This document shows positions 1 to 24,953 of a DNA stretch of 57,574 bases, piece after piece. Positions within the stretch are counted from its first letter, which is position 1. Each line of letters begins with the position of its first letter. The DNA is from Candidatus Ventrenecus stercoripullorum (lineage in GTDB: Bacteria; Bacillota_I; Bacilli_A; RF39; UBA660): positions 1-57,574 of the forward strand of contig DVGF01000046.1 of assembly GCA_018712835.1 (NCBI GenBank), written 5' to 3'. The notes below the pieces were generated by a model. The model saw only the letters and a list, made by a program, of their open reading frames with translations. It did not search any database and was not told where the DNA came from. Made by a program: the position numbers and the translations under genes.

Positions 1-145
1 ATGATGAGTGAAAATGCTTAAGGGTATTTTTGAGAGTGAATAAGGCCAAGATTTGTCTTTGGTTTTAACCTAAATATACAGTATGGATGGGGAGTATACG
101 TACTCACCCTTTCACCATACTTTTTTAGAAAGGGAAATGTTTACT

Positions 146-508
146 ATGAGTAAATATATTGAGTTTAAAAGAAAAGGAAAGTTTTATGAGGTAACGTATG
201 AAGATGCTTATATTTTATGGTATTTGTTAAGATATAAAATTTATAATAATAAAGTTGGTTTTCCAGAAAGTTCTTTGTTTAAAGTTTTAGAAATTCTAAA
301 AGAAAATCAAGTAGGATATCGTTTATCTTTAGATGATGATTTAGGTTATATAAAAAGTAATATAGAAAATAAATATGAAGAAATACTTGAAGAAGCTAAA
401 AAAGAATTTTTAAAAGAAAAGAAGCAAAAAGAGTTACTTGATAAAATAAAAAGAGCTAGTAGAGATGATTTAGAAAAAGTACTAAGTTATATGGAAAGTG
501 TTTTATGA
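146..508 (+). CDS. small MutS-domain-I-like protein, probable DGR accessory (MSL-type)
   Basis: ORF track gives 83..508. I prefer ATG 146, which has AAAGGGA about 9 nt upstream. 'GKFYEVTYEDAYILWYLL...KVGFPESSLFKVLEILKENQVGY' resembles the MutS mismatch-binding domain I core (GDFYE.F.EDA ... aGvP ... G.kV). Its stop overlaps the next start (ATGA at 505-508). Confidence 0.5.
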   Translation: MSKYIEFKRKGKFYEVTYEDAYILWYLLRYKIYNNKVGFPESSLFKVLEILKENQVGYRLSLDDDLGYIKSNIENKYEEILEEAKKEFLKEKKQKELLDKIKRASRDDLEKVLSYMESVL

Positions 509-831
509 AAGAAGAATTAAAAATATTTATTGAAACAAAGTCTTTTATTGAATTAGTGAGTCAGTATAGTATTCTGTTTCCAAAACGAAGTGTTGTTTTT
601 AAAAATAGATTTATGGATACTTCTTTTTCTTTATTGGAAGAGTTATATTTATTTAACTATAGAAAGAAGAATATGGAAATTCTTTTTATGAAGATATCTC
701 TGCTTGATTATTATATTGAGTATGGATATAAAAATCGTTTTTTCTCTCATAAAATCAATAAAGAATTAAGTAATAAGCTTTCTTTTATTTTGAGGTTGTG
801 TTATGGACTTAAAAGAAAATATAGTGCTTGA
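505..831 (+). CDS. Avd-like four-helix-bundle DGR accessory protein
   Basis: 108 aa, predicted helical and basic. It is translationally coupled on both sides and lies immediately upstream of (and overlapping) a DGR-type RT. The 'FPKRSVVFKNRF...' and C-terminal 'LSNKLSFILRLCYGLKRK' pattern is like Avd / 23S-IVS four-helix-bundle proteins. Confidence 0.55.
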   Translation: MKEELKIFIETKSFIELVSQYSILFPKRSVVFKNRFMDTSFSLLEELYLFNYRKKNMEILFMKISLLDYYIEYGYKNRFFSHKINKELSNKLSFILRLCYGLKRKYSA

Positions 832-1410
832 TTTATTAGATGTTTATGAAAGAGAAATACGAAAACATTGTAAAAATAAAAGAAAGGTTTACTTATTTGA
901 ATGTTATAAAATGAGTTATATGAGTGAAATTAGAGATGTTTTAGTTTCTCATAAACATTATAGTTGTAAGTATTCTATTTTTTTAATTTTTGAACCAAAG
1001 GTAAGAGTTGTTATGAGTTTACCTATTAAAGATAAAGTACTCAACCATTACGTCACTAGATTTATTTTAATTCCTAAGTTAGAAAAGTATTTAGATATTC
1101 GTAATGCTGCTACTAGGAAAGGAATGGGTACTGAGTATGCTAGAAAGTTATTTCGTAAGCATTTAGTTTTAAATAAAAGTAAAAAGTTTTATATTTTAAA
1201 ATTAGATATTTCTAAATATTTTTATAGTATTGATCATGAAGTATTAAAGAGTTTACTTAAAGATAAATTAAATAGTATGGAATATTCTTTGGTCTGTGAT
1301 ATTATTGTTTCTAGTAATAAAAGGTATGTCAATGATAGGATTTCTTTGTTAGAAAAGAAATATGGGATAGAGTTACCTAGATATGAGTATGGAAAAGGGT
1401 TACCTATTGG
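803..1410 (+). pseudogene. DGR reverse transcriptase, N-terminal fragment (RT motifs 1-4, up to GLPIG)
   Basis: Motifs 'FEPKVRVVMSLPIKDKVLNHY', 'RKGMGTEYA', 'ILKLDISKYFYSIDHEVL' and 'KGLPIG' are present. After codon G (1409-1410) the frame runs into the RIT inverted repeat, so ORF 803..1474 ends in element-derived sequence. Confidence 0.85.
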
Positions 1411-1500
1411 TTATAGAAACTATAATATTATGCAAACAGTTATTATGAAACTGTGTTTTTTATTTTATAAATGAGTTTTTCACTTTACATAACTTGAATG
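1409..1500. repeat. RIT left terminal inverted repeat
   Basis: ggttatagaaactataatattatgcaaacagttattatgaaactgtgttttttattttataa... is the reverse complement of 4745..4836. The outer 60 bp are identical and there are 3 mismatches in the inner third. Confidence 0.9.
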
Positions 1501-23004: not shown

Positions 23005-24711
23005 ATGAAGAAACAAACAATTATAGCACTAGCAGTCATAGGAGTACTGTTAGTAGGAACGATAGGAGTGACTTTTGCATACTTTGCATCTAGTAGTCAA
23101 AATGATAATGCCGGTATTAATGCAGAAACAGAAGAACTAGGAAGTATTTTGTTAGATGGAACAAAAGTGTTTACTTCTTATGATTTATTACCAGGACAAA
23201 TGGGAGTACAAGAATTTACAATAGAAAAGAATTCAGATACTGGTAATGGTATTTATGAAATTGATTTAGAAGCAACTGTTCCAGAAGAATTTCAAAGTGA
23301 TATAGAAATACTTTTATATAAAACAACAAACCCAGTAAGTAATAATGTTACTGTAAATGTAGCAGATCCAACATTAGAGAATAATCAAATTTATCAGGAA
23401 GATAGTTTAAATATTACAGGAAGTCCAGAACTAGTATATCAAGGAATACTTACAGAAAATCCCCAAATCATCTTAGAACAACAAGATTTTGATGTAACAA
23501 CTTTAGAAAAGACAACCTATTACTTAGTATATCATTATAAAAACAACGGAAATCAAGATGATCAACAAGGGAAGACATTTACAGGAACGATAACTGTGAG
23601 ACTTATTAATGAGAAATTAACAGATTATAAAAAATGTACAGAATTATATGGCGAAGATAATCCTCAATGTGGTATTTTAGCTCAAGTAGATACGACAGGA
23701 AAATGTCCAACAGTGAATGAACAAGGACAAATCTTAGTCAGTGGACCGGAAACAACTGAAAGCCTCGTTTGTAGTGCGCCAGATGATTATGGAACAAGTT
23801 ATTATTATAGAGGAGATGTGGAAAATAACTGGGTAAAGTTTGCTGATGCATATTGGCGAATAGTAAGAGTGAATGGTGATGGAAGTATTAGAATCGTCTA
23901 TGCCGGAGATGCCAACACTATTGATGCTTTACCAAATAAAGAAGAAGTATTACAAAATGGATATGATGATAGTAGTACCGATTATACCCAAATAGGGACC
24001 AGTGCGTATAACTCATCATATAATGATAATGCATATGTAGGATATATGTATGGAACACCAGGAAGTAGTAGTTATGAAGAAACCCATGCAAATATCAATG
24101 ATAGTACAATCAAACAATATATTGATCAATGGTACAAAACAAATATTGTCGATAAAGGATATAGTGAATATGTCAGTGATACGTTATTCTGTAATGACAG
24201 AAGCTTTGTATATGATGAGGCATTTTCAATTGATGGCTTTTATAATGGAAATACAATGACTCAACTAGGCTATGGACAAAACTATACAGCATATCGTTGG
24301 GCAGGGGATCCACAGGCGGCTCAAATGGGCGGAGAGTATGAAAAAGTATTAACTTATCCAAATTTTCGTTGTAGTAATCAAAATGATCGGTTTACAGTAA
24401 GCAGTGGAATAGGGAATGGAGCATTGACATATCCAATAGCATTACTAAGTACTGACGATATCTATGCAGCCGGAGGATTTAGTACAGAAAACTATAACTA
24501 TTATTTGTATACAGGAAATTTGTATTGGTCTTTGTCGCCGAGCAACTTCAATGATGGCTACGCGTACGTGCGTAACGTGTATAACTATGCTAGCAACTAC
24601 GACTATGTGGATGACTCCATCGGCGTCCGTCCCGCAATCAATCTGAAGTCTGGTAGTCTGACGCAAGGCTCAGGAACGGCTAATGACCCATTTGTATTAT
24701 CAGGGAACTAG
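23005..24711 (+). CDS. DGR target protein: secreted TasA/camelysin-like N-domain plus C-terminal variable lectin-like (DUF1566-type) domain
   Basis: Start is ATG 23005 (ORF track 22927). The signal 'LLVGTIGVTFAYFASS' resembles the SipW-cognate TasA/CalY class. The C-terminus '...YWSLSPSNFNDGYAYVRNVYNYASNYDYVDDSIGVRPA' contains the VR. Confidence 0.85.
   Translation: MKKQTIIALAVIGVLLVGTIGVTFAYFASSSQNDNAGINAETEELGSILLDGTKVFTSYDLLPGQMGVQEFTIEKNSDTGNGIYEIDLEATVPEEFQSDIEILLYKTTNPVSNNVTVNVADPTLENNQIYQEDSLNITGSPELVYQGILTENPQIILEQQDFDVTTLEKTTYYLVYHYKNNGNQDDQQGKTFTGTITVRLINEKLTDYKKCTELYGEDNPQCGILAQVDTTGKCPTVNEQGQILVSGPETTESLVCSAPDDYGTSYYYRGDVENNWVKFADAYWRIVRVNGDGSIRIVYAGDANTIDALPNKEEVLQNGYDDSSTDYTQIGTSAYNSSYNDNAYVGYMYGTPGSSSYEETHANINDSTIKQYIDQWYKTNIVDKGYSEYVSDTLFCNDRSFVYDEAFSIDGFYNGNTMTQLGYGQNYTAYRWAGDPQAAQMGGEYEKVLTYPNFRCSNQNDRFTVSSGIGNGALTYPIALLSTDDIYAAGGFSTENYNYYLYTGNLYWSLSPSNFNDGYAYVRNVYNYASNYDYVDDSIGVRPAINLKSGSLTQGSGTANDPFVLSGN
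24530..24636 (+). repeat. DGR variable repeat (VR)
   Basis: 107 bp aligned without gaps to 24847-24953. There are 9 mismatches (24542, 24559, 24565, 24580, 24586, 24598, 24604, 24613, 24620), and the TR base is A at all of them. Confidence 0.95.
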
Positions 24712-24747
24712 AATTATCAGGGGTAAGCCTAAGACGATGAAACGTTG

Positions 24748-24773
24748 CCCAAAAATGACTCCTCATTTTTGGG
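24748..24773 (+). terminator. 11-bp-stem hairpin downstream of the target gene
   Basis: cccaaaaatga-ctcc-tcatttttggg, then ccggcgccatttttt. It could be a terminator and/or a DGR target-proximal hairpin. Confidence 0.55.
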
Positions 24774-24846
24774 CCGGCGCCATTTTTTAAAATTTAGCAT
24801 CAATAAAAATATAGATGTAGGGATTTTCTAAATAGAGGGACTTTTG

Positions 24847-24953
24847 CTTTGTCGCCGAACAACTTCAATGATGGCAACGCGAACGTGCGTAACGTGAATA
24901 ACAATGCTAGCAACAACGACAATGTGGATAACTCCAACGGCGTCCGTCCCGCA
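24847..24953 (+). repeat. DGR template repeat (TR)
   Basis: Non-coding copy of the VR. In the VR frame it reads LSPNNFNDGNANVRNVNNNASNNDNVDNSNGVRPA, which is rich in AAY codons. Noticeably more GC-rich than its flanks. Confidence 0.95.

Follow-up and report, generated by a model that had tools for sequence, protein, structure and literature searches.

Two DGRs, very probably unrelated, on one contig of Candidatus Ventrenecus stercoripullorum: a cassette interrupted by a RIT element and a TR/VR module without a neighbouring RT

Introduction

Can the RT cassette of a DGR and a TR/VR pair lying 19.5 kb away from it be parts of the same element? The question is raised by the DNA stretch analysed here, referred to as the window throughout: 57,574 nucleotides of Candidatus Ventrenecus stercoripullorum (contig DVGF01000046.1, forward strand). 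Near the left edge of the window, an accessory ORF (83-508; MSL-type, see below) precedes an Avd-like ORF (505-831), which in turn overlaps an RT gene starting at position 803. The RT gene is broken by three tyrosine recombinase genes. A TR and a VR are found around 24.5 kb. The distance from the RT stop to the start of this TR is 19,509 nt, and the interval contains rpsL, rpsG, fusA, tuf, gmk, FemAB and an ABC/MacB exporter. An initial annotation of the sequence drew attention to this arrangement, and all of these features were confirmed. The annotation interpreted the whole as a single DGR, split in two and having the distant TR as its only one. As a second alternative, it considered that the cassette could belong to another DGR, with a TR/VR to the left of position 1, and that the 24.5-kb pair is an orphan.

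Results

The window corresponds to bases 1564-59137 of a source contig of 59,061 bp. The 1,563 contig bases to the left of the window were found to contain a 426-aa target gene, a VR and a TR. The VR (VR1; window coordinates -425 to -331) closes the C-terminus of the target gene. The TR (TR1; -106 to -12) stops 12 nt short of the window, at a distance of 95 nt from the MSL ORF that follows. The two repeats, both outside the window, differ at 14 positions, 13 of which are TR adenines. Thus, the cassette has its own cognate TR/VR just upstream of position 1, as in the second alternative above, and the TR at 24.5 kb is not the only one. No TR adjoins the RT within the window, as the annotation had stated; since TR1 and VR1 are present on the contig left of the window, this absence is an artefact of truncation at the window edge. 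The order of the elements in this locus, hereafter DGR1, is target, VR1, TR1, structured RNA, MSL, Avd and RT, which is the canonical VR-TR-MSL-Avd-RT arrangement. Gene order is the same in a relative whose RT is 69% identical (L023), and in all close RT relatives with a detectable pair the TR lies at most a few hundred bp from the cassette.

The structured RNA (24-137, plus strand) belongs to TR1, which it follows, and overlaps the start of the MSL ORF. It was recognised with a covariance model, R1, built on 8 related DGR cassettes and comprising three helices and a UACG loop, with compensatory changes at 16 of 19 pairs. The window segment matched R1 with 100.4 bits (E=7e-16). In the close RT relatives recovered, the element adjoins the TR (15 further loci with E<0.001, plus one cut by the contig end); no Rfam family matched it. 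We refer to this type as clade A. By position, the element corresponds to the Sp region in the DGR RNA of the Bordetella phage.

The MSL-type (MutS-domain-I-like) accessory gene (83-508, plus strand; 141 aa) occupies a position conserved in relatives, where tblastn detected homologues 33-72% identical to it. Two of the homologues, L094 and L095, exceed the Pfam MutS_I cut-off (32 bits versus 20.6); the window protein, at 14.4 bits, falls under it. The next ORF (505-831, plus strand; 108 aa), which overlaps the RT start, likewise scored under the cut-off of NCBIfam DivGenRetAVD (19.5 bits against 80; E=9e-4). Its AlphaFold model is a four-helix bundle (pLDDT 89.5) with TM-scores of 0.80-0.91 against the bAvd chains of a DGR ribonucleoprotein (8UB7) and Avd (4DWL). 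The predicted fold identifies this protein as Avd.

The RT gene of DGR1 (RT1) is in two pieces, both on the plus strand. The N-terminal part (803-1410; 203 codons) matches RVT_1, and its frame continues into the insertion up to a stop at 1474. The C-terminal part (4867-5338; 157 codons) carries the YMDD motif and the thumb (RVT_1, E=8e-10) and joins in frame. Joining 803-1410 to 4867-5338 yields an uninterrupted RT of 359 aa with the LPIGNMTSQ and YMDD motifs, 47-73% identical to more than 100 full-length RTs, which include RTs found beside TR/VR pairs. With its RT motifs, an adenine-specific TR/VR beside the cassette and Avd, the locus is a DGR. A search of 5.8 billion protein clusters returned no intact RT more than 73% identical to RT1. 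All nine RT1 alleles examined are defective through an insertion, a stop codon or a frameshift, and a RIT element or a contig break precedes the C-terminal fragment in 23 of 23 contigs read.

The insertion (1411-4866, plus strand; 3,456 bp, or 3.46 kb; boundaries accurate to about 2 nt) is a RIT ('recombinase in trio') element. It contains three genes with Phage_integrase matches, ritA-like (1498-2772; 424 aa), ritB-like (2765-3703; 312 aa) and ritC-like (3715-4728; 337 aa), the first two overlapping by 8 nt. At its ends are inverted repeats of about 100 bp (1405-1507 and 4738-4840), a palindrome occupies 4835-4866, and the sequence TATTGG is present at both junctions. The insert is absent from that site in L004 and L006 and inverted in L003 and L009; in other samples a RIT is inserted in TR1. 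The assignment relies on a trio of tyrosine recombinases, size, inverted repeats and the existence of both filled and empty sites. Since the element landed in the catalytic core of RT1, between the IGNxxSQ and YMDD motifs, DGR1 is dead: no intact RT is present, and the locus is at present unable to diversify. VR1 showed no differences among six contigs of close strains with the insertion (L001, L003, L005, L007, L008 and L281); in this group it is frozen.

The pair at 24.5 kb is organised differently. Target gene 2 (23005-24711, plus strand) encodes 568 aa from a conserved MKKQ start, in an ORF open from 22927. At its N-terminus the protein carries a signal or anchor sequence; it is a member of a large multicopy family, with at least 8-9 paralogues per related genome. 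DUF6273 matches, mostly weak or faint where graded, were obtained on homologues only and none on target 2 itself; they are the sequence hints bearing on a possible C-type-lectin (CLec) fold of the target. VR2 (24530-24636, plus strand) lies at the 3' end of the gene and encodes residues ~535-570 of 594. TR2 (24847-24953, plus strand) is AAC-rich, with 33 A in 107 nt, and no RT adjoins it. The two repeats are 92% identical and all nine mismatches are at TR adenines (hypergeometric p=1e-5). They share the GC-rich sequence GGCGTCCGTCCCGCA, a possible IMH-type 3' end, immediately 3' of which divergence begins; a hairpin (24748-24773) is found more than 100 nt downstream of VR2. The pair, real as the annotation had it, thus has two features of a DGR, adenine-specific mismatches and a VR placed at the 3' end of its target ORF. 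TR2 is followed by a structured RNA element of another type, clade B (24954-25172, plus strand), and by an intrinsic terminator (25160-25194, plus strand; 11-bp stem, then a T-run), the sole terminator-like site within 24600-25400, which would end the TR2 RNA unit. A simple scan upstream of TR2 detected no sigma-70-like promoter.

Apart from the DGR1 genes, no RT, Avd or MSL was found in the window, and none within 8-10 kb of the TR2 module in any strain; the window search also gave no further copy of a TR or VR. On the whole contig TR1 and TR2 did not match each other and had one VR apiece. Every strain found has TR2 at this site, with no RT there and with constant neighbours: a 235-aa ORF, the target gene, TR2 and an Rpn-like gene on the opposite strand.

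The RNA element of TR2 pointed to the lineage of the module. It is 75.5% identical over 159 nt (E=1e-20) to the element of L289 and L291, which directly precedes an intact bAvd-218aa-RT cassette; L289 has a hairpin where the TR2 unit has its terminator. The elements of L092, L095 and L094 have the TR2 element as their best match in the whole contig (E=5e-5, 1.7e-4 and 7e-4, respectively) and share with it the 13-mer GATTGGAAACAAG. Helices are conserved in the TR2 element, the clade-A model gave it only 18.2 bits, and the flanks of TR1 and TR2 showed no significant likeness. The RTs of the clade-B cassettes are about 40% identical to RT1, and their targets are homologous to target 2. In all likelihood, then, the TR2 module comes from a DGR lineage, clade B, other than that of DGR1. 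Its element is a post-TR RNA element by comparison with these loci and might have a role in priming. No clade-B RT was traced to this genome; the intact L289-L291 cassettes are on contigs not linked to this organism.

Comparison between strains showed that VR2 changes. The window and L278 differ at 14 positions in 1,985 nt, 13 of them in VR2 and one in the other 1,878 nt. Each of those 13 VR2 positions corresponds to an adenine of TR2 (p=3e-8). When the L278 VR2 was compared with TR2, 12 of 12 mismatches were at A. With P0249 as the third, three VR2 alleles occur on an otherwise near-identical gene; the contigs of L277-L280, which carry the alternative allele, end before RT1. In more distant strains VR2 differences are mainly at A, and a paralogue located elsewhere, L276, fits an L153-type TR2 with 24 of 28 mismatches at A. 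Alleles differing at adenine positions on a constant background are evidence of mutagenic retrohoming, though old polymorphisms passed between strains by recombination may also account for them. VR2 is not frozen and was probably rewritten recently. The initial annotation had regarded the variable protein as frozen unless another RT exists elsewhere in the genome. This holds for VR1, identical in the six contigs above, but not for VR2, with its 13 changes at TR adenines; differences in VR2 between near-identical strains suggest that an RT acts in trans, as the caveat allowed.

Discussion

We conclude that the window almost certainly includes parts of two DGRs, very probably unrelated, rather than a single split element, and that DGR1 is canonical and dead. 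The annotation had held that two unrelated loci would be indicated by a TR/VR immediately upstream together with an intact RT next to a TR copy elsewhere; the former was found, an intact RT beside a TR copy was not. The best explanation of the whole, which we consider probable, combines two unrelated DGRs with a TR2 module that lacks an RT and is served in trans. That the enzyme is an unlinked RT, as opposed to RT1 or no RT at all, has about an even chance of being correct. Trans action is suggested by the rewriting of VR2 at TR2 adenines between near-identical strains in which there is no local RT. The comparisons demonstrate how the module is built, to which lineage it is assigned and that VR2 has changed specifically at adenines; on this basis the following scheme can be proposed. 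The TR2 module would be a short, self-terminated template-RNA gene, presumably its own transcription unit, beside its VR. The likeliest enzyme would be a clade-B Avd-RT complex, if one now exists, with its genes at a distant place in the genome or on a separate replicon. What this complex would recognise is the RNA element following TR2, the putative equivalent of the Sp region, which in Bordetella BPP-1 is needed for cDNA synthesis and for priming by the enzyme (PMC6182149). The cDNA, mutagenised at adenines, would then home to VR2. Expression of avd, TR and brt in trans from a plasmid is possible (PMC5758913).

A single DGR whose avd/RT cassette and TR/VR were parted by a 19.5-kb insertion or rearrangement including the str operon would account for the appearance of the window alone, with no TR seen beside the RT within 1-57574. 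We rejected this reading, which the part of the source contig left of the window refutes and which retains next to no likelihood: the TR and VR of the cassette itself are located 12-425 nt beyond the left window edge, TR2 is unlike TR1 and carries the RNA element of another lineage, and both loci are syntenic and stable across strains. Use of the TR2 RNA in trans by RT1-Avd-MSL, 19.5 kb upstream, now or until the RIT insertion, would make a system of one RT and two TRs. DGRs with several TRs are documented (PMC6642488), co-transcription of TR and RT is not obligatory (PMC5758913), there is no other RT on the 59-kb contig, and the 19.5-kb spacing of the two loci is kept in a 53-kb contig from another sample. 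Moreover, the TR2 and clade-A elements are alike in overall layout, and the TR2 element is the third-best match of the clade-A model in the window (whole-window E=0.56 for its 18.2 bits). This proposal is nonetheless unlikely. The TR2 element is far nearer to the elements of RTs only about 40% identical to RT1, and the clade-A model scores it below the elements of those distant RTs (27-29 bits). RT1 is defective in all sampled alleles, with no intact copy on record, and the closest strains (0.6-0.7% divergent) share one and the same VR1, whereas VR2 has changed at about 1% divergence.

Alternatively, TR2/VR2 could be the fossil left half of a clade-B DGR that lost MSL, Avd and RT by deletion and has no RT now, a history that seems improbable. 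On this view the alleles of VR2 would be long-standing variants, maintained by selection and exchanged among strains through homologous recombination. In clade-B relatives the MSL, Avd and RT genes come immediately downstream of the element, which here has the Rpn-like PD-(D/E)XK gene facing it. The same VR2 occurs in six contigs from five other samples, picked for an exact match in a neighbouring protein; some strains show a mosaic locus, and TR2 is variable as well. In L149 and L153, non-A mismatches between VR and TR (23/48 and 12/36) fit drift after loss of activity. Against this, every VR2/TR2 mismatch in the window strain and in L278 is at A, which means that the present TR2 was the template of these VRs and that they have not drifted. 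Furthermore, 13 of 14 differences lie within 107 nt of 1,985, and a recombination patch would need to fit the VR exactly. The helices of the RNA element are kept, with a compensatory stem change between strains (ATCAC/GTGAT versus ATCAT/ATGAT), the unit has its own terminator, and the sequence downstream holds no trace of MSL, Avd or RT.

An RT-less TR2 module served in trans, the explanation we favour, can be set beside systems already described. DGR1 is of the MSL-containing type, 'Architecture D' of Wu et al. 2018 (PMC5758913). It resembles MSL DGRs and that of Bordetella phage BPP-1 in the C-terminal VR of the target, the adenine-rich TR, the A-specific mismatches, the post-TR structured RNA, MSL, Avd and an RT with IGxxxSQ and YMDD. 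It differs in its RIT-interrupted RT, non-functional in all sampled alleles, and in a post-TR RNA element missing from Rfam. Remote-target DGRs, such as those of Treponema denticola and Legionella, account for 45 of 372 DGRs (PMC5758913). The TR2 module is similar in that an RT would act on a non-adjacent site, and a remote paralogue, L276, matches a TR2-type template as a VR would; more than one TR unit per RT, as in multi-TR DGRs, is also found in the clade-B locus L291. However, in described remote-target DGRs the TR stays beside the RT and only VRs are remote, whereas here the TR travels with the VR. Also unlike described DGRs, TR2 comes with an RNA element and a terminator of its own, and RTs are missing for at least 24 kb on one flank and 32 kb on the other, save that the sole RT on its contig is RT1, 19.5 kb off, of another lineage and broken. 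Modules like TR2/VR2 would go unreported by an RT-anchored pipeline in which one repeat has to lie no more than 1 kb from the RT (PMC8144416).

RITs are about 3.5 kb long, with three adjacent recombinase genes and a 28-bp repeat (Van Houdt et al. 2012, PMC3414803). The element in RT1 conforms to this description in its size of about 3.5 kb, its three adjacent, slightly overlapping tyrosine recombinase genes, its terminal inverted repeats and its location inside another gene. It differs in that the terminal repeats, about 100 bp and accompanied by a 24-32-nt palindrome, are longer than the reported 28 bp. Here, empty-site alleles and alleles in both orientations occur in natural populations, and it is parts of a DGR that are hit: the RT gene in this case, TR1 in other samples.

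The RT cassette is a complete DGR cut by the left edge of the window

The left end of the window carries, on the plus strand, a 141-aa ORF (83-508), a 108-aa ORF (505-831) and a reverse transcriptase (RT) gene in two pieces: a 223-aa ORF that starts within the preceding frame (803-1474; N-terminal RVT_1 region) and a 155-aa ORF containing the YMDD motif and the C-terminal RVT_1 region (4871-5338). A template repeat/variable repeat (TR/VR) pair lies 19,509 nt beyond the RT stop, past rpsL, rpsG, fusA, tuf, gmk, FemAB and ABC/MacB exporter genes. The initial annotation described this anatomy accurately, from the accessory ORF, the Avd-like ORF and the broken RT to the TR/VR pair at 24.5 kb, and read it as one split DGR with a single, remote TR. 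This reading fails once the source contig is considered. The window begins at base 1564 of this 59,061-bp contig, as placed by an exact match of the 141-aa protein. The 1,563 bases to its left are occupied by a 426-aa gene whose C-terminal 95 nt constitute a variable repeat, VR1 (window -425 to -331); an AAC-rich repeat of VR1, designated TR1, lies 319 nt downstream (window -106 to -12). Of the 14 positions that distinguish TR1 from VR1, 13 are TR adenines, so the RT cassette has its own cognate TR and VR. Thus, the TR at 24.5 kb is not the only one, and the apparent split is an artefact of the window's cut point. The second alternative offered in the annotation, namely a DGR with its TR and VR left of position 1 and a separate pair at 24.5 kb, is the one that the upstream sequence supports, leaving the observation as a whole partly confirmed. 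An assembly chimera joining the two loci was ruled out by an independent 53-kb contig from another sample with the same layout. The split as submitted matters little, amounting to a window-edge artefact and an ordinary dead DGR.

The order of genes in this element (DGR1) is target, VR, TR, accessory gene, Avd and RT. The same order is found in a different genomic setting in locus L023, whose RT is 69% identical to that of DGR1 (RT1). Metagenomic relatives with RTs 45-57% identical invariably have the TR within a few hundred bp of the cassette, where it precedes the accessory gene or directly follows the RT. The 141-aa protein, in the conserved accessory position, is the MutS-domain-I-like accessory (MSL): two homologues, from other DGRs, score above the Pfam cut-off and the window copy falls just below it. 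DGRs with such a gene are the "Architecture D" described by Wu et al. (PMC5758913). The Avd sequence signal is weak in the 108-aa protein. A confident single-sequence model (pLDDT 89.5) shows four helices and superimposes with TM-scores of 0.80-0.91 on the bAvd of a DGR ribonucleoprotein and the Avd of phage BPP-1; this model identifies the protein as Avd.

Eight related cassettes share a structured RNA downstream of the TR, consisting of three helices and a UACG loop, with compensatory changes at 16 of 19 pairs. The corresponding covariance model (clade A, for the lineage of RT1) scores 100 bits at window 24-137 and also locates this RNA next to the TR of the close relatives that were recovered. 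Rfam contains no such family. The Bordetella RT-Avd complex needs the Sp region for priming (PMC6182149); the RNA at 24-137 is the positional counterpart of Sp and may likewise serve in priming. Its hairpins overlap the first dozen or so MSL codons (83-120; MDGEYTYSPFHHT); either these bases are doubly constrained, by RNA structure and coding, or the true start codon lies further downstream. In contig L008 (approximately 1455-1551), the VR1 of the window strain is combined with a TR1 of the diverged L009 type (16 differences), which indicates recombination within DGR1.

RT1 is inactivated by a RIT element

Three tyrosine recombinase genes (1498-2772, 2765-3703 and 3715-4728) separate the RT halves. 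In two contigs from other samples (L004 and L006) the N-terminal part is continuous with the C-terminal part, which delimits the insert to 3,456 bp at 1411-4866. It carries inverted repeats of about 100 bp at its ends together with a terminal palindrome, TATTGG being present at each junction, and fits the published description of a recombinase in trio (RIT) element, with three adjacent recombinases in about 3.5 kb (PMC3414803). Removing it in silico restores a 359-aa RT with LPIGNMTSQ and YMDD. All RT alleles examined are defective: six carry the RIT element, two have stop codons and the "empty" ones have a +1 frameshift at the old junction. A RIT element or a break adjoins the RT C-fragment in all 23 contigs read. 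The 223-aa fragment falls in a cluster of 198 sequences, and no intact RT more than 73% identical was present in the protein collection searched. Six contigs of closely related RIT-carrying strains (L001, L003, L005, L007, L008 and L281) have the same VR1; differences are confined to more diverged alleles. DGR1, once active, is now dead.

The pair at 24.5 kb belongs to a second DGR lineage

The repeats at 24530-24636 (VR2) and 24847-24953 (TR2) form a genuine pair: the 107-nt copies are 92% identical and all nine mismatches fall at adenines of the second copy, the TR (hypergeometric p=1e-5). VR2 encodes the C-terminal part of a 594-aa ORF (target 2). TR1 and TR2 have no sequence match, and the contig holds one VR for each. 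The sequences immediately following TR1 and TR2 resemble each other by eye; this resemblance was dropped after a shuffle test, in which the flanks aligned no better than shuffled sequences (219 of 1000 shuffles reached the score of the 3′ flank and 791 of 1000 that of the 5′ flank).

The clade-A RNA model scores only 18 bits downstream of TR2. Three DGRs with RTs only 39-42% identical to RT1 (clade B) have post-TR elements to which the region 3′ of TR2 can be aligned over about 190 nt, with common helices and a common 13-mer. When these three clade-B elements were searched against the whole contig, the best match of each was the region downstream of TR2 (E=5e-5, 1.7e-4 and 7e-4). Furthermore, the 3′ end of TR2 with its element is 75.5% identical over 159 nt (E=1e-20) to a further clade-B cassette, one encoding a bAvd, a 218-aa protein and a 367-aa RT (L289-L291). 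Because the clade-B element matches, the clade-B targets are homologues of target 2 and a match to TR1 is lacking, we assign the TR2/VR2 module to a second DGR lineage. RT lineages have recognisably different, covarying post-TR RNA elements, by which the RT lineage of an orphan TR can be assigned.

A strong intrinsic terminator closes the TR2 unit (25160-25194). No remnants of MSL, Avd or RT were found near TR2/VR2. A search of both TR regions and of three relatives against Rfam returned nothing relevant, a promoter scan upstream of TR2 found no consensus site on the plus strand, and the fold of the whole TR2 RNA is no more stable than that of shuffled sequences (z=-0.97). An Rpn-family PD-(D/E)XK nuclease/transposase-like gene (25346-26248, minus strand; PDDEXK_2 and HTH_Rpn_C domains) faces the TR2 unit in all strains; clade-B relatives carry MSL, Avd and RT at that place. 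TR2 is preceded by GGGATTTTCTAAATAG (24820-24835), similar to a motif found in L291. There, four tandem TR-like units (4855-5960) lie upstream of one bAvd-RT cassette, each following a GGGATTAATCTAA-like motif and ending in GGCGTCCGCCCAATTTCC; two have a full RNA element, and the one adjoining Avd has the look of a mutagenised copy, its 80 nt including only 5 adenines.

A scan with target 2 uncovered a large paralogue family and no ancestral state. None of the 41 loci found in representative genomes has an RT, Avd, MSL or convincing TR/VR pair. One of them, L039, was considered as the syntenic locus and rejected; two paralogues with 74-79% identity (P0123 and P0127) lie in other genomic contexts without a TR. 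Several relatives among uncultured Bacilli/Tenericutes gut genomes (L028-L068) have at least 8-9 paralogues per genome; these have no TR or RT within 10 kb, and the L291 TR units match none of them.

VR2 differs between strains at template adenines

The RT-less neighbourhood of TR2/VR2 is the same in every strain recovered, including those with a target only 78-85% identical. Within the 90% cluster of target 2, three VR2 alleles are found on an otherwise near-identical protein. Between the window and contig L278 there are 14 differences in 1,985 nt covering the target gene and part of TR2; 13 of these fall within the 107 nt of VR2, each at a TR2 adenine (p=3e-8). The L278 VR2 differs from TR2 at 12 positions, every one an adenine. 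In more distant strains, where TR2 is polymorphic, the VR2 differences are mainly at adenines, with non-A changes besides. The L153-type TR2 is matched by a paralogue from a different genomic context (L276), 24 of whose 28 mismatches are at A, and one stem of the TR2 RNA element shows a compensatory change between strains. The simplest reading of these sequence comparisons is that VR2 has been rewritten by mutagenic retrohoming in the absence of an adjacent RT; the caveat is that the alleles could be old variants recombined between strains. The proposal in the initial annotation that the variable protein is frozen therefore holds for VR1, identical in six contigs, and probably not for VR2, with its 13 changes at TR2 adenines.

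Being polymorphic between strains, the TR2 template is not invariant. Compared to L014, L149 and L153, TR2 shows a 6-nt indel and several differences at adenine positions (e.g., GAACGTGCGTAAC vs GTACGATCGTTTC), possibly resulting from VR-to-TR conversion or self-homing. For L153 and L276, the VR agrees better with an older version of TR2 than with the present one. Some assemblies break inside VR2 (L014) or near window position 23142, in the N-terminal part of the target gene (L018-L021), as expected where a sample contains several alleles.

A possible unlinked RT for TR2

At comparably low divergence, VR1 is unchanged (strains 0.6-0.7% apart) whereas VR2 has changed (strains about 1% apart). 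This difference, the death of RT1 and the other-lineage RNA of TR2 favour an unlinked clade-B RT over RT1 as the enzyme serving TR2, a reading for which we hold the case to be about evenly balanced. Contigs of the strains with the other VR2 allele do not extend to RT1. Gut metagenomes contain clade-B RTs in abundance, but none could be linked to the Candidatus Ventrenecus stercoripullorum genome. The search for a partner yielded the intact clade-B bAvd-RT cassette of L289-L291, without a link to this genome, and its TR units have no matching VR in any locus compared. The phage collection contained no TR2-like DNA and only distant RT relatives (identity no greater than 34%). In viral contigs, a 14-mer pattern gave about 120 matches, taken as chance, and a 22-mer pattern a single match in an unrelated coding sequence.

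Comparison with known DGRs

RT-adjacent TRs are well known to serve remote VRs, and plasmid-borne avd, TR and brt are functional in trans (PMC5758913). The literature also mentions DGRs that have several TRs (PMC6642488). Unlike the known remote-target systems, where the TR sits beside the RT, the TR2 module keeps its TR with the VR, with no RT serving it within 59 kb. In the literature searched, there was no description of a TR lying with its VR far from an RT and having its own RNA element and terminator. Such a unit may be a stand-alone template-RNA gene, with its own recognition RNA, living beside its target; it may still be used by an Avd-RT that is distant or on another replicon after the nearest RT has been destroyed. 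It is conceivable, if on the whole somewhat doubtful, that DGRs in low-GC gut Bacilli are distributed systems of stand-alone template-RNA genes, distant Avd-RT cassettes and off-switching by RIT elements. If the adenine-specific rewriting of this RT-less module is confirmed, it would show that genes for template RNAs may be scattered and still be served in trans, and RT-anchored surveys would undercount DGR activity, RT-less modules being invisible to them. A large-scale pipeline demands a repeat no more than 1 kb from the RT (PMC8144416) and would for that reason miss modules of the TR2 type.

RIT elements at other DGR sites

Two contigs from other samples (L003 and L009) carry the RIT element of window 1411-4866 at the same site in the opposite orientation, suggesting inversion between the 100-bp terminal repeats or independent insertions. 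The RIT-free alleles (L004, 4278-4290, and L006) read CCTATTGGTTAATATG, where an intact RT requires CCTATTGGTAATATG or CCTATTGGAAATATG. Their +1 frameshift lies exactly at the insertion site (window 1405-1410 and 4861-4866) and is possibly an excision footprint. A second, different RIT element is inserted within TR1 (approximately window -60 to -52) in other samples (L002, 1811-5209; L004; L006). It encodes proteins of 413, 316 and 325 aa and has 85-bp terminal inverted repeats, a 24-nt palindrome and TAACGTGAA at both junctions. Haplotypes with this insertion also have an RT stop codon or frameshift, and L006 has an ISL3 transposase gene upstream of the shared right junction. The occurrence of RIT elements in the RT and TR of a DGR, with empty and inverted alleles in natural populations, is rare direct evidence of RIT movement, and such insertions may repeatedly switch DGRs off. 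A third tyrosine recombinase trio is found in L276 (9792-12906), 94 nt past the stop codon of the target-2 paralogue. Among a small number of contigs, three RIT insertions thus involve DGR parts, which may reflect target preference or chance.
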